Source: Rickettsiales bacterium
Lineage (GTDB): Bacteria > Pseudomonadota > Alphaproteobacteria > Rickettsiales > JAIXRX01
Direction of reading: 5' to 3'
DNA length: 64,000 bases
Assembly (NCBI GenBank): GCA_965247145.1
Contig: CBDFGH010000006.1
Coordinates: 104,778 to 168,777 of the forward strand
Shown here: in pieces, positions 10,187 through 15,238 of the stretch
Position numbering within the stretch: the first letter of the stretch is position 1
Layout: each line of letters begins with the position of its first letter
The notes under the pieces: generated by a model
What the model saw: only the letters and a program-made list of their open reading frames with translations
Told to the model about the DNA's origin: nothing
The model's database searches: none
Position numbers and translations under genes: made by a program

Positions 10187-11992
10187 ATGACCACGCCGCT
10201 TTCCCATATCCGCAATTTCTCCATCATCGCCCATATCGATCACGGCAAATCCACCTTGGCGGACCGGCTGATCGAGCAAGCGGGCGATATCGAGATGCGG
10301 GATATGAAGTCCCAGCATCTGGACAGTATGGATATTGAGCGCGAGCGCGGCATCACCATCAAAGCCCAGACCGTGCGCCTGAAATACAAAGCGAAAAATG
10401 GCGAAACCTACATCTACAACCTGATGGACACACCCGGCCACGTCGATTTCGCCTATGAAGTCAGCCGTTCTCTGGCCGCTTGCGAAGGCTCCCTGCTGGT
10501 GGTGGATGCTTCCCAAGGCGTGGAAGCGCAGACGCTGGCGAACGTCTATCAGGCCATCGACAACAACCACGAAATCATCCCCGTCCTCAATAAGATCGAC
10601 CTCCCCGCCGCCGAGCCGGAAAGGGTGAAGGAGCAGATCGAGGACGTGATCGGGCTGGATTGTTCGGATGCGCTGGAGGTTTCGGCCAAAGCGGGCATCG
10701 GCATCGCCGAGCTGCTCGAAGCCATTTCCGTGCGCCTGCCCGCCCCCAAAGGCGTGGCGGATTCCACGCTGAAAGCCATGCTGGTGGATAGCTGGTACGA
10801 TGCCTATCTCGGCGTCGTCATCCTGGTCCGCATCGTGGATGGGGTGTTGAAAAAAGGCATGAAGATCCGTTTCATGTCGAACGGCCATTCCTATCATGTC
10901 GAACAGACCGGAGTCTTCACGCCGAAGAAAGTGCCGGTCGATACGTTGGGACCGGGCGAGGTTGGCTACATCATCTGCGGTATTAAGCTGGTGGCGGATT
11001 GCCGGGTGGGCGACACGGTGACGGACGACCGCAACCCCTGCACCGAATCCCTCCCCGGCTTCCGCCCCGCCATGCCTGTGGTCTTCTGCGGGTTGTATCC
11101 GACGGACGCCTCCGATTTCGAAAATCTGCGCGATTCCCTGGGTAAACTGCAATTGAACGATGCGAGCTTCGGCTATGAGACCGAAAGCAGCTCCGCGCTC
11201 GGCTTCGGTTTCCGCTGCGGCTTCCTCGGGCTGCTGCATCTGGAAATCATCCAGGAACGCCTCGAGCGCGAATTCAACCTCGACCTCATCACCACGGCCC
11301 CCAGCGTGGTCTATAAACTCACCATGACCAATGGCGAGGAGATGGAGCTGCACAACCCGGCAGACATGCCGGAAGTCACCCGCATCGAAGCCATGTATGA
11401 GCCCTGGATCAAGGCGACCGTGATGGTGCCGGACGAATTCCTCGGCAACGTGCTTTCCCTGTGCCAGGAAAAGCGCGGCGAGCAGGTCGATCTGACGTAT
11501 GTGGGCAATCGCGCCATGGTGGTGTATCGCCTGCCGCTGAACGAAGTGGTGTATGATTTCTACGACCGTCTCAAATCCGGCACCAAAGGATATGCCAGCT
11601 TCGATTACGCGATGGACGGTTATGCCGAATCCGACCTCGTGAAACTCTCCATCCTGGTCAATGCCGAGCCGGTGGACGCCCTCTCCATCATCGTCCACAA
11701 ATCCCAGGCCGATTACCGGGGCCGCGGGCTGTGCGAGCGCCTCAAGAAACTCATCCCCCGCCAGATGTTCCAGATCGCCATCCAAGCCGCCATCGGCGGC
11801 AAAGTCATCGCCCGCGAAACCATCAGCGCCCTGCGCAAGGACGTGACGGCGAAATGCTACGGCGGGGATATCTCGCGGAAGCGGAAGCTGCTGGATAAGC
11901 AGAAGGAAGGGAAGAAGAAGATGCGTTCAGTGGGGAATGTGGATATTCCGAAAAGCGCATTCATCGCGGCGTTGAAGATGGATAACAGCTAA
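10187..11992 (+). CDS. lepA: Elongation factor 4
   Basis: 601 aa with GTPase motifs AHIDHGKST and DTPGHVDF. It has the LepA-specific C-terminal domain. Confidence 0.97.
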
Positions 11993-12054
11993 GCCGCCAT
12001 CATTCCGTAACATTGGTGCGGTAAACTGCGGCACGAACCAGTCGCGGAATCACC

Positions 12055-13692
12055 ATGCATCCCATCGAAGAAAAGATCGACCGACTCGTTCGCGCCGTGC
12101 GGGCTGGGGAGATAAAGAAAAGCGAAGCCATCCTCGCGGTGACGTCGGAGGAAATGAACCTGTTCTGCCATCCGCAAATCGCACGCCAGGGCGATGAGCG
12201 AATGTTCGCCGATCATTTACTTGCGGACTCTCCCGGCACTTCCTCCGGTATCGCGGTATTCGATATGAAAGAGGCTGCCGCGCGCACCGCACGCGGCGAG
12301 CAGGTCATCCTCATTCGCCCCGAGACGGGCGCGGAAGATACGGCCATCATGAAAAAATGCGCCGGTGTCGTCACTCTAGGCGGCGGGCGCACATCGCATT
12401 CCAAAGTGGTCAGCCGAGGGGCGGGCATCCCCTGCGTCAGTTCGCCCGAGATGCGCATCGCGCAGGGCCAGCTCATCTGTGGCGAGCAAATCATCGAGGC
12501 GGGCGCGCATATCACGATCGATGGCACCAGCGGCGCGATCTACCATGGCGAAGTTCCCTCCTACACCCTCATGCCGACGAAAGCGCTGAATACACTGCTT
12601 TCCTGGTCGGACGAAATTGCGCGCATCAAGACCTATGTAATTCTGGATAGTAAGGAAGAGCTCGAAAAAGCCCTTCGCGAGGGCGCAAAAGGCATCAGTA
12701 TTCTGCGCACGGAACATATGTTCTTCGCACCCGAACGCTTGGCGGTTTTTCAAAGCCTGCTTTTGACGCCGAAAGACAAACCGGAATGGCGGGCGCCGAT
12801 GCTGGTGGAACTGCAGGAAGCCCAGCGCCAAGATTTCACCGAGATCTTTGCCAGCGCCATGAAAAGCCAGCAGGATTTCCCGGTCAATATCCGTCTGCTC
12901 GACCCGCCGCAGCACGAATTCATGCCGCAACCGGCGCATTGGGATGAATTTCTGGAACGCAGCCATCTGGGTATCGACCGCGCCGAACTGGCCGAACGCA
13001 TTGGGCGGTTGAAAGAAAAAAATCCCATGTTCGGCAAGCGCGGCGTGCGCCTCCTGCTCGACCAGCCCGACCTCATGCGCATGCAATTGCGGGCCATTTT
13101 CGAGGCGGCAGCCGCCACGCGGAGCAAGTTCGGCCAAGCACCCAATCTCGGTATCTGCATCCCGATGACGGAAAATGCGCAGCAATTGAAAGACTGCCGC
13201 GAAATCATCCAGGGCGCACGCGCGCAGGTGGCGCAGGAATTGGGCTTGAGCCCGGCGGATTTGCCGTATTTCTACAGTACGATGATCGAGACGCCAGCTG
13301 CCGCCATCAACGCGGAAAACCTCGCCAAACTTTGCGACAGCTTCAATTTCGGTGGGCACGACATGGCGGCCAGCGTGCATGCGGCGGACCGCGATTCCTG
13401 CGACCATCCGGAAATCTTCGCTGCGCTTTCGGATGAAACGCTGTATATGGCGAAAATCGCTGCGAGCGGCGGCAAGGCAGGCAACCGGCGACTCAACTTC
13501 GCTTTCTGCGGCGATCAGGGAAGAGACCCCGATTCCCTCACCCGCATCCTGAGCGAGATCAAACAGGTCGATAGCGTTACCGCCAATGCGCATGACGTGA
13601 TGCGCACGCGCCTCATCGCCGCGCAGGCCACGATCAAAGCGCGTGGGCATGCATTGAGCATCAACCGCACCACCGGCCCAAGCCTGCTTTAG
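12055..13692 (+). CDS. Pyruvate phosphate dikinase-like protein lacking the N-terminal ATP-grasp domain (545 aa)
   Basis: The swivel phospho-His domain (GGGRTSHSKVVSRGAGIPCV) is followed by a PPDK-type PEP/pyruvate barrel (LRTEHMFF, RLLDPPQHEFMP, NPMFGKRGVRLL, MIETPAAA, FCGDQGRDP). The alignable region starts at the PPDK linker (SEAILAVTSEEMNLFCHP). Only 62 nt separate the gene from lepA, so no nucleotide-binding domain is encoded upstream. Confidence 0.8.
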   Translation: MHPIEEKIDRLVRAVRAGEIKKSEAILAVTSEEMNLFCHPQIARQGDERMFADHLLADSPGTSSGIAVFDMKEAAARTARGEQVILIRPETGAEDTAIMKKCAGVVTLGGGRTSHSKVVSRGAGIPCVSSPEMRIAQGQLICGEQIIEAGAHITIDGTSGAIYHGEVPSYTLMPTKALNTLLSWSDEIARIKTYVILDSKEELEKALREGAKGISILRTEHMFFAPERLAVFQSLLLTPKDKPEWRAPMLVELQEAQRQDFTEIFASAMKSQQDFPVNIRLLDPPQHEFMPQPAHWDEFLERSHLGIDRAELAERIGRLKEKNPMFGKRGVRLLLDQPDLMRMQLRAIFEAAAATRSKFGQAPNLGICIPMTENAQQLKDCREIIQGARAQVAQELGLSPADLPYFYSTMIETPAAAINAENLAKLCDSFNFGGHDMAASVHAADRDSCDHPEIFAALSDETLYMAKIAASGGKAGNRRLNFAFCGDQGRDPDSLTRILSEIKQVDSVTANAHDVMRTRLIAAQATIKARGHALSINRTTGPSLL

Positions 13693-13737: not shown

Positions 13738-14394
13738 TCAAGCCCGCCGTTCCGTCGCGGCGCATCCTTTGCACACCGCATAAAGCACCACCGCATTCAA
13801 TCCGTGCCACGCCCAATGTGTGCCCAGCGGCACGGCTTCGCACCATTCCAGATCGAGCGTGCGCAGCGTGAGGGAGAGGATGAAGGTAAGGCTGGCGAGG
13901 GCGAAGGGGCGGAAGGCAGCGGGTTGGCGGCGGGTGAGCGCGGCGAAGCCGAGAAGCGCAAGAAGCGCGGCGAAGTAGCCGGAGGAGCCGTGGGTGGGCA
14001 CGTCGCGCAAGAGATAGGGCAGTCCGGCGCTGGCAGCGAAGAAGAATCCCCAAGCCAGCCCGATTTTCCACCACACCCAGTCGAACAAGCGCCGCAGAAT
14101 CAGCGCGATGGCGGCGAGCTGGAAGGCGAGGATGGGCAGCACATCTGCCCATTCGGCCCACCGAGTGGCGAAGGTGTGGAAGAGAAAACTACCGATGCCG
14201 ATGACGAAAAGCAGGATGGGCAGGATCAACAAGGCCCGCGCGTTTCGGTTATTCTCGCTTTGGCGGCGCACCATGCGCCATGCGCAATAGGCGGCGACGA
14301 AGAAAGCGGCGTTGCTGATCGCATTGACCGGTTCGGCCCAGAATTCCGGCCCGAGGCGCTCGCAATATTGATCGAGATGGTCGGTTAGGGCCAT
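13738..14394 (-). CDS. Ceramidase-family (alkaline ceramidase-like) integral membrane protein
   Basis: MALTDHLDQYCERLGPEFWAEPVNAISNAAFFVAAY, followed by several more TM helices. I chose the ATG at 14394, which lies 10 nt after the upstream gene's stop. Confidence 0.55.
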   Translation of the reverse strand: MALTDHLDQYCERLGPEFWAEPVNAISNAAFFVAAYCAWRMVRRQSENNRNARALLILPILLFVIGIGSFLFHTFATRWAEWADVLPILAFQLAAIALILRRLFDWVWWKIGLAWGFFFAASAGLPYLLRDVPTHGSSGYFAALLALLGFAALTRRQPAAFRPFALASLTFILSLTLRTLDLEWCEAVPLGTHWAWHGLNAVVLYAVCKGCAATERRA

Positions 14395-14404
14395 GGAAGA
14401 ACCT

Positions 14405-15238
14405 CTAGGGTTGAACGCCATTATCCTTCAACATACCGCGCATGGCGTCGATGACCTCTGCGCTGGGGAAGCCGTGATGGCCGAGATTGGCGAAGAAGAT
14501 ACCCCGCTTGGGGCTGTTTGCCGCCGCCAGCATGGCGCGACCCTGGGTGACGGGGATCACGGCATCCGCTTCCCCGTGCAGGATGAGCACCGGCGCATGC
14601 ACTTTGGGAAGGTAGGCCAGGCTCTCGAAACGGTCGCGGATCAGCAGGTTTACCGGCACGTAATAGTAAATCTCCTGCGCGCGGGCGGCGATGGAAGTGT
14701 AGGGGGATTGCAGCACCAGCAGGCGTGGCGCGGTTTCCGAAGCCATGCGCACGGCCACGCCGGTGCCCAAAGATTCGCCGTAGAAAATCATCTCGCGCGC
14801 CTGCAAGCCCAGTGTTTTCTCCGCGTAAACCAGCGCGGCGCGGGCATCGCTCAAAATACCCGCCTCGCCCGGGCTGCCGCCGCTGCCGCCAAAACCGCGA
14901 TAGCTGATGGCGACGATACCGAAGCCCGCATCCATCCAGGCATGGAACAAGGCGCTGTGACCGCCGAGATTACCCGCATTACCATGAAAGAAAGCAATGG
15001 TGGGCTGGCCGGGGCGGGCGGGAATGCTCCACATCACCAGTTGCGTTTTGTCGGCGGCTTGAATACGTGCTTCCTGCATGTCGAACAACCCATATTCGGC
15101 GGGTTTCTGCATGGCCGCGACCGGATGATAGAGCAGGGATTGCTGGCCGAAATAGAGGGTGAGCAGCACCACGGCATAAAGTGCGGCACAAAGCAGCAGG
15201 AACAGTTTCGCGGCGCGGATGTGTTTGGGGTTCAGCAC
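14405..15238 (-). CDS. Alpha/beta hydrolase (membrane-anchored, ABHD/BEM46-like)
   Basis: N-terminal TM helix, nucleophile elbow GESLGTG, an HGNAGN oxyanion region and a late HGEADAVIP...GHH triad region. Confidence 0.8.
   Translation of the reverse strand: MLNPKHIRAAKLFLLLCAALYAVVLLTLYFGQQSLLYHPVAAMQKPAEYGLFDMQEARIQAADKTQLVMWSIPARPGQPTIAFFHGNAGNLGGHSALFHAWMDAGFGIVAISYRGFGGSGGSPGEAGILSDARAALVYAEKTLGLQAREMIFYGESLGTGVAVRMASETAPRLLVLQSPYTSIAARAQEIYYYVPVNLLIRDRFESLAYLPKVHAPVLILHGEADAVIPVTQGRAMLAAANSPKRGIFFANLGHHGFPSAEVIDAMRGMLKDNGVQP

Follow-up and report, generated by a model that had tools for sequence, protein, structure and literature searches.

A pyruvate phosphate dikinase-type protein without an ATP-grasp domain in a Rickettsiales bacterium

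The Locus and the Encoded Protein

The stretch of DNA considered here, called the window, comprises 64,000 nt of contig CBDFGH010000006.1 (positions 104,778 to 168,777) from the Rickettsiales bacterium assembly GCA_965247145.1. Downstream of lepA, it carries a gene for a protein of 545 amino acids (aa) that is a relative of pyruvate phosphate dikinase (PPDK) but is devoid of the ATP-grasp domain with which PPDKs begin. The open reading frame (ORF) is intact, running over 545 codons from an ATG start to a TAG stop with no internal stops. lepA ends at position 11992, and an in-frame stop stands 10 codons 5' of the ATG so that no space is left for an N-terminal domain. The first-pass annotation, which had considered the gap to lepA too small for an ATP-grasp domain, is thus confirmed on this point. 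Since neither a promoter-like nor a terminator-like site was found in the spacer, co-transcription of the gene with lepA is possible. The features of the gene are listed in Table 1.

Table 1. Features of the gene for the 545-aa protein and of its upstream spacer (positions in the window)
Feature	Position	Strand	Remark
62-nt spacer after lepA	11993..12054	+	With an in-frame stop
Whole gene for the 545-aa PPDK-type protein lacking ATP-grasp	12055..13692	+	Stop included
Helical linker, aa 1-60	12055..12234	+	Homologous to the PPDK linker from nucleotide domain to His domain (residues ~350-395)
Phospho-histidine swivel domain, aa 61-170	12235..12564	+	PF00391; motif GGGRTSH
Thr113 codon of the swivel domain	12391-12393	+	
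Phosphocarrier His115 codon of the swivel domain	12397-12399	+	
PEP/pyruvate-binding TIM barrel, aa 177-525	12583..13629	+	PF02896
Ile196 codon, end of the first barrel strand	12640..12642	+	Replaces a superfamily-invariant Asn; 4/4 members
His435 codon	13357..13359	+	Adjoins Mg-ligand Asp436, replaces an invariant Asn; 4/4 members
Family-specific 13-residue deletion, approximate site (~aa 449-454)	13399..13416	+	
Cys485 codon	13507-13509	+	Catalytic-type
Asp487-Gln488 after Cys485	13513..13518	+	CGDQG versus CGEHG of PPDK; 4/4 members

Two Pfam models match the protein, namely PF00391 at aa 82-160 (E 3e-16) and PF02896 at aa 177-525 (E 6e-47), whereas the same scan gave no match to PPDK_N (PF01326). 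The motifs quoted in the first-pass annotation are all present: GGGRTSHSKVVSRGAG at aa 109-124, RTEHMFF at 218-224, RLLDPPQHEF at 280-289, FGGHDMAAS at 432-440 and FCGDQGRDP at 484-492. Thus, the swivel His domain and the barrel binding phosphoenolpyruvate (PEP) and pyruvate are kept, as had been proposed. TIGR01828, the equivalog model of PPDK, aligns over its positions 350-865 only, and the alignment with solved PPDKs starts at residues 353-354 (379 in some) and runs through the C-terminal end, in keeping with the earlier view that the likeness to PPDK begins at the inter-domain linker and that the ATP-grasp domain is absent. This alignment to PPDK without the ATP-grasp domain is confirmed and lies far beyond chance.

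A Small Family of Short Proteins

Relatives were sought in 5.8 billion protein clusters by a word-indexed search and, exhaustively, in 1.84 billion representatives with a hidden Markov model (HMM). The family consists of four sequences among about 15 billion proteins, namely the window protein, P0002, P0003 and P0121; after these three relatives, the score falls from 986 to 406 bits, where ordinary full-length PPDKs start. All four members have 545-557 aa, the same short architecture and an identical conserved N-terminal start, which supports the ATG at position 12055 as the true start. Upstream of the starts of P0002, P0003 and P0121, no PPDK_N coding sequence is found, the place being taken by non-coding DNA or an unrelated small gene. 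The members share 46-86 % identity and come from genomes of 36-59 % GC: the relatives' genomes have 36-39 %, as compared with 59 % for the window gene, in which the GC content by codon position is host-like. The ThiE protein encoded next to P0121 is 76-79 % identical to that of genomes from another family of the same order, so that the AT-rich members come from relatives of the window organism.

Further members were found neither in 185,579 species genomes nor in 241 million JGI metagenome records, and when 400 genomes of the order (190 genera) were surveyed with a profile, the gene turned up in the window genome alone. The 16 nearest genomes carry canonical PPDK only. In six of them (G018, G187, G171, G104, G153, G131), the canonical PPDK frame contains one or two in-frame stops, which could reflect pseudogenes, sequencing errors or recoding. 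Five other short proteins (P0077, P0094, P0074, P0032, P0213) were rejected as members, as they either start inside PPDK_N or have cluster mates of 821-914 aa and are therefore cut-off gene calls of canonical PPDKs.

The two closest members, P0002 and P0121, show a ratio of nonsynonymous to synonymous substitution rates (dN/dS) of 0.12 at a dS of 0.79. As the window copy has no near relative, constraint on it was measured through column conservation in 46 canonical PPDKs. Among positions with the same residue in P0002 and P0003, the window protein retains it in 85, 73, 49 and 22 % of the columns, from the most to the least constrained, and this gradient is nearly the same in the other family members. 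The PPDK columns that are at least 93 % conserved (n = 141) include 76 kept in all four members and 21 with an identical substitution in all four. These 21 fixed changes read as the signature of a changed but constrained protein; the divergence of barrel motifs noted in the first-pass annotation is thus real, but it consists of family-wide fixed changes rather than random erosion. The AlphaFold2 model of the 545-aa protein is confident, with a predicted local distance difference test (pLDDT) score of 91.7 and a predicted template-modelling score (pTM) of 0.90. Altogether, the gene very probably encodes a working protein and not a dead remnant.

Ancestry of the Family

The protein scores 355.8 bits with the PPDK model TIGR01828, 108-122 bits with PEP synthase models and 101.9 bits with the Enzyme I (EI) model, all below the curated cut-offs, which are 843.45 bits for TIGR01828, 598-740 for the PEP synthase models TIGR01418 and NF005057, and 341.7 for TIGR01417. 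Its predicted fold matches PPDK with a template-modelling (TM) score of 0.87, as against 0.58 for EI. The alignment with outgroups shows that it also carries the PPDK-specific insertion between DPPxHEF and NPMxG, which is missing from PEP synthase and EI. The best HMM score, the insertion and the fold all bear out the PPDK lineage put forward in the first-pass annotation.

When PEP synthase and EI serve as outgroups, the four members fall together on the PPDK side as a clade with 100/100 support (99/97 in one tree), and the PEP synthases form a 100/100 clade of their own, apart from the family. The final tree was built without four outgroup rows, at whose loci the longest ORF was a gene other than the one sought; in the first tree, the family had been placed beside a long-branched row, a placement treated as possible long-branch attraction. 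The phylogeny thus assigns the family to the PPDK side, on which any exact placement, like any time of origin, would be tentative: a sister position to the PPDK crown receives a support of 36/16 only, and an approximately unbiased (AU) test (p = 0.375) does not reject placing the family with PPDKs of the order to which the window belongs. The stem of the family measures 1.9-3.6 substitutions per site. Identity to the PPDK of the same genome is 34-44 % in the His domain and barrel, where bacterial and archaeal PPDKs share 58-63 %, and identity to any PPDK is only 29-38 %. The evidence supports a protein of PPDK type, descended from a PPDK-type ancestor by loss of the ATP-grasp domain.

Active Site and Dimer Interface

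Within the aligned region, 32 columns do not vary among PPDK, PEP synthase and EI; all four members retain 21 of these. The retained residues include His115 and Arg121 of the swivel domain as well as Arg218, Glu220, Arg280, Asp283, Asn323, Arg329, Glu412, Asp436, Arg446 and Cys485 of the barrel. From the structures of Clostridium symbiosum PPDK and Escherichia coli EI, we take this set to include the His that carries the phosphoryl group, the Arg pair that binds phosphate, both Mg ligands and the Cys that donates the proton. His115 is invariant in both the family and the superfamily, and the Thr-Ser-His motif is invariant in the family. A search of the literature on natural or engineered truncations, on the term 'putative PEP-binding protein' and on lists of active-site residues returned nothing usable. 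The AlphaFold2 model fits PPDK structures in which the His domain sits on the PEP barrel (TM 0.86-0.87; root-mean-square deviation 2.3-2.7 Å), as opposed to a deviation of about 11 Å from those with the His domain at the nucleotide domain.

The dimer interface was mapped from the published PPDK interface (PMC5556012, Table S3). Of its residues with a conservation of at least 95 % in PPDK, 10 of 23 are kept, a loss similar to that elsewhere in the protein (76 of 141 conserved positions kept). Changed interface residues include R751, S781, D784, G779 and Q775, and the 13-residue deletion removes the helix carrying K787, Y792 and E795-Q799 (Flaveria numbering). The changes at the interface are no more than suggestive, since about 45 % of the conserved positions are lost in the rest of the protein too. 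Together with the replacement of Asn196 by Ile and of Asn435 by His, the altered interface suggests that the specificity for substrate or metal has changed and that the quaternary structure differs.

Genome Setting and Neighbouring Genes

In the window genome (2.36 Mb, 94 % complete), there are genes for a full-length canonical PPDK whose motifs are standard, for an EI-Ntr that has a GAF domain, for one HPr/NPr and for one PPDK regulatory protein. PF01326 matches the full-length ppdK only, and no stand-alone PPDK_N gene is present in this 94 %-complete genome. The 545-aa protein therefore has no dedicated partner with which it would make up a split enzyme, a possibility that the first-pass annotation had raised. 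Pyruvate kinase (PF00224) was not found either in the 94 %-complete genome, while all 14 reference genomes used as controls were positive, and the interconversion of PEP and pyruvate thus appears to rest on PPDK-type enzymes and EI-Ntr.

The surroundings vary among the four loci, none of which has an ATP-grasp gene adjoining the family member. Those of the window are lepA and, on the other side, a convergent gene (13738-14421, minus strand) for a membrane protein of 227 aa with a match to the ceramidase family (PF05875, E 7e-10), unusual for a small alphaproteobacterial genome; an alpha/beta hydrolase gene follows at 14405-15238 (minus strand). At locus L020 the neighbour is lipA, and at locus L023, which encodes P0121, the neighbours are a 95-aa ORF, a MeaB-like GTPase and thiE. 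The 95-aa ORF (L023:492-779) lies 8 nt upstream of P0121 and has a homolog of 39 % identity in the window genome (C1:548684-549037). It was rejected as a conserved partner: the homolog is on another contig, the ORF is absent at the other two loci and it has no Pfam or PADLOC match. A defence-system library gave no match. The ThiE of locus L023 (L023:3463-4194) contains an insert of about 29 residues (aa 43-71), and in many of its relatives the match is split into aa 1-42 and about 72-242, leaving out this stretch, which may be an in-frame insertion of a repeat element. Finally, an antisense open frame of 424 codons (12376-13650, minus strand) inside the gene of the 545-aa protein is a shadow ORF of the sort common in GC-rich DNA and no candidate gene.

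Proposed Function and Alternative Readings

The two partial reactions of PPDK take place at separate sites on separate domains, that of ATP and Pi at the ATP-grasp domain and that of PEP and pyruvate at the barrel (PMC5556012). The 545-aa protein has retained all that the PEP/pyruvate partial reaction requires and nothing for the ATP/Pi partial reaction. Such a division has a parallel in two-component dikinases, in which HpeH, the subunit with the swivel and substrate domains, catalyses phospho-exchange between substrates by itself (PMC12167813). The best-supported reading, to which we give about an even chance, is that His115 is autophosphorylated from PEP with release of pyruvate and that the phosphate then passes to a non-nucleotide acceptor. 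Its established ground is the architecture, the intact frame, purifying selection, the retained catalytic residues and a confidently predicted docked fold; the autophosphorylation itself, the direction of flux and the acceptor are proposals built on that ground. The protein would carry out partial reaction 2 of PPDK on its own. PEP and a divalent metal would bind to the barrel through Arg218, Arg280, Glu412 and Asp436, the swivel domain would dock on the barrel, and His115 would accept the phosphoryl group, after which Cys485 would protonate the enolate and pyruvate would be released. Devoid of a nucleotide site, the phospho-His could not make ATP, and its phosphate would have to reach another acceptor, which may be a second small molecule in the same barrel (PEP:X phospho-exchange), a protein or water.

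A tentative extension of this proposal, which we consider possible but would not expect to hold, sees in the family a fourth functional branch of the PEP-utilising superfamily, a natural 'half dikinase' that phosphorylates from PEP, by means of His115, an acceptor other than a nucleotide or HPr. Candidates for this acceptor would be a novel small molecule in the altered barrel or a novel partner protein.

Several observations weigh against phosphotransfer from PEP to a non-nucleotide acceptor. The two Asn residues replaced in 4/4 members (N196I and N435H) are invariant across the superfamily, and given these changes the substrate may be other than PEP, or catalysis may suffer. The window copy has extra changes next to the metal site (FGGHDMA versus FGTHDLT), and its terminal branch exceeds all others in the family, being about twice the length of those of its relatives. 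The neighbours differ at all four loci, where no conserved gene hints at an acceptor, and the docking of the His domain on the barrel in the AlphaFold model may be due simply to the absence of the other domain. An enzyme with a changed substrate, using a related pair of phospho-enol and alpha-keto acid or another metal and performing a new phosphotransfer through His115, is unlikely, even if it is favoured by the change to His in all four members of Asn435 next to the Mg ligand, by that of Asn196 to Ile and of CGEHG to CGDQG, and by a long stem followed by conservation, a pattern typical of a change of function. Indeed, the remaining residues common to the three PEP-using families are kept, the pathway context points to no substrate, and CGD also occurs in the EI-Ntr of the same genome, so that this change need not alter the chemistry.

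The PPDK regulatory protein targets the Thr before the catalytic His. With Thr-Ser-His invariant in the family, and with a canonical PPDK and one PPDK regulatory protein encoded in a genome to which, for want of pyruvate kinase, PPDK control matters, the protein might instead be non-catalytic, acting as a sensor of PEP or pyruvate, as a decoy or substrate for the regulatory protein or as a modulator of canonical PPDK. We regard this as distinctly improbable because the full catalytic set, with Cys485 and the metal ligands, is conserved and would be needless in a pure binding protein; heterodimers with canonical PPDK are also disfavoured by the reduced interface and its deleted helix, albeit with a modest enrichment over the rest of the protein. 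A slim chance is left to a split or auxiliary enzyme, in which the ATP-grasp domain of the full-length PPDK, present in the genome, or of an unrecognised partner would serve the phospho-His in trans and restore dikinase chemistry. Some two-component dikinases (HpeHI, CreHI, PpsAB; PMC12167813) do have their ATP-grasp domain on a subunit of its own, but here PF01326 finds the full-length ppdK only in the 94 %-complete genome, no adjoining ATP-grasp gene is seen at any of the four loci and the canonical dimer interface that would bring both proteins together is altered. Decay of a duplicated ppdK into a pseudogene or remnant, which the first-pass annotation had left as a second option, is largely refuted and highly improbable. 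The long branch of the window copy and the lack of the gene in 399 of 400 genomes of the order would fit it, but the 545 codons are intact, the same truncated architecture recurs in four sequences despite their range of identity (46-86 %) and of genomic GC (36-59 %), dN/dS is low and a constraint gradient is seen in the window lineage, the 21 shared substitutions are fixed rather than scattered like damage, and the predicted fold is confident. The short form is accordingly a conserved family under purifying selection, and PEP-dependent phosphotransfer through His115 remains the preferred reading.

PPDK is the textbook case of swivelling-domain catalysis between two remote sites. That selection has kept a one-site version alongside the complete enzyme, as seen in the window genome, implies that the PEP/phospho-His half-reaction is useful in itself. 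The identity of the acceptor could reveal a new PEP-driven route of phosphotransfer, in a small-genome alphaproteobacterial host where pyruvate kinase is lacking and few enzymes control the PEP/pyruvate node. The fixed Asn-to-His change beside the metal site offers a defined entry point for studies of specificity in the superfamily. The importance of the family is limited by its rarity (four sequences, one of 400 genomes of the order).

Comparison with Known Systems

PPDK itself (TIGR01828; PDB 5JVL, 5JVJ, 2R82, 1DIK) is the best match of the 545-aa protein by HMM, sequence and fold, and shares with it the linker, the TSH swivel domain, the PEP/pyruvate barrel and the DPPxHEF-NPMxG insertion. 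The protein differs from it by the missing ATP-grasp domain, by N435H, N196I and CGDQG, and by the 13-aa deletion in the dimer-interface helix. Enzyme I of the phosphotransferase system (PTS) and EI-Ntr (TIGR01417; PDB 2HWG) likewise combine a His domain with a PEP barrel and have no nucleotide domain, and EI autophosphorylates from PEP. Several residue states of the 545-aa protein are EI-like, such as GGRTSH, TPAAA and DRD. However, the HPr-binding helical subdomain that defines EI is absent (no PF05524 match), the His domain belongs to the PPDK type, insertions of that type, missing in EI, are present, and the genome already has an EI-Ntr and NPr of its own. The first-pass description as Enzyme-I-like therefore holds for the two domains in common and not beyond them.

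The dikinase subunits of HpeHI, CreHI and the phenylphosphate synthase PpsAB also join a swivel His domain and a second-substrate domain in one polypeptide without ATP-grasp (PMC12167813). Their substrate domain is of the rifampin-phosphotransferase type and not a PEP barrel, and they have a dedicated gene for an ATP-grasp partner, which is absent here. Another naturally truncated relative of PPDK is described by the model NF004531 (PRK05878, 534 positions), to positions 314-492 of which aa 14-198 of the window protein match. Judging from the length of the model, it would be the mirror image, with ATP-grasp and His domains and no PEP barrel; it is presumably of mycobacterial type.

P0167, a protein of 541 aa from JGI metagenome 3300009868 (L114:805-2430), shares the domain outline of the family, with PF00391 and PF02896 only. 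In contrast to the family, it keeps the canonical FGTNDLTQ and CGEHGG and, in the first tree, nests among ordinary PPDKs. It represents a separate and more recent loss of ATP-grasp, outside the four-member family. P0167 further reads CRSEYMLL where CRTEHMFF is expected, and the gene upstream of it encodes an NrtR-type winged-helix regulator, with no PPDK_N fragment.

Set against these systems, the 545-aa protein is enzymatically not a PPDK, being without ATP-grasp, below the cut-off and changed at invariant Asn residues. It is not an Enzyme I either, as the HPr-binding subdomain is missing, nor a subunit of a two-component dikinase of known type, from which it is set apart by another substrate domain and the lack of a partner gene. 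It is a new and very rare variant within the PEP-utilising superfamily.

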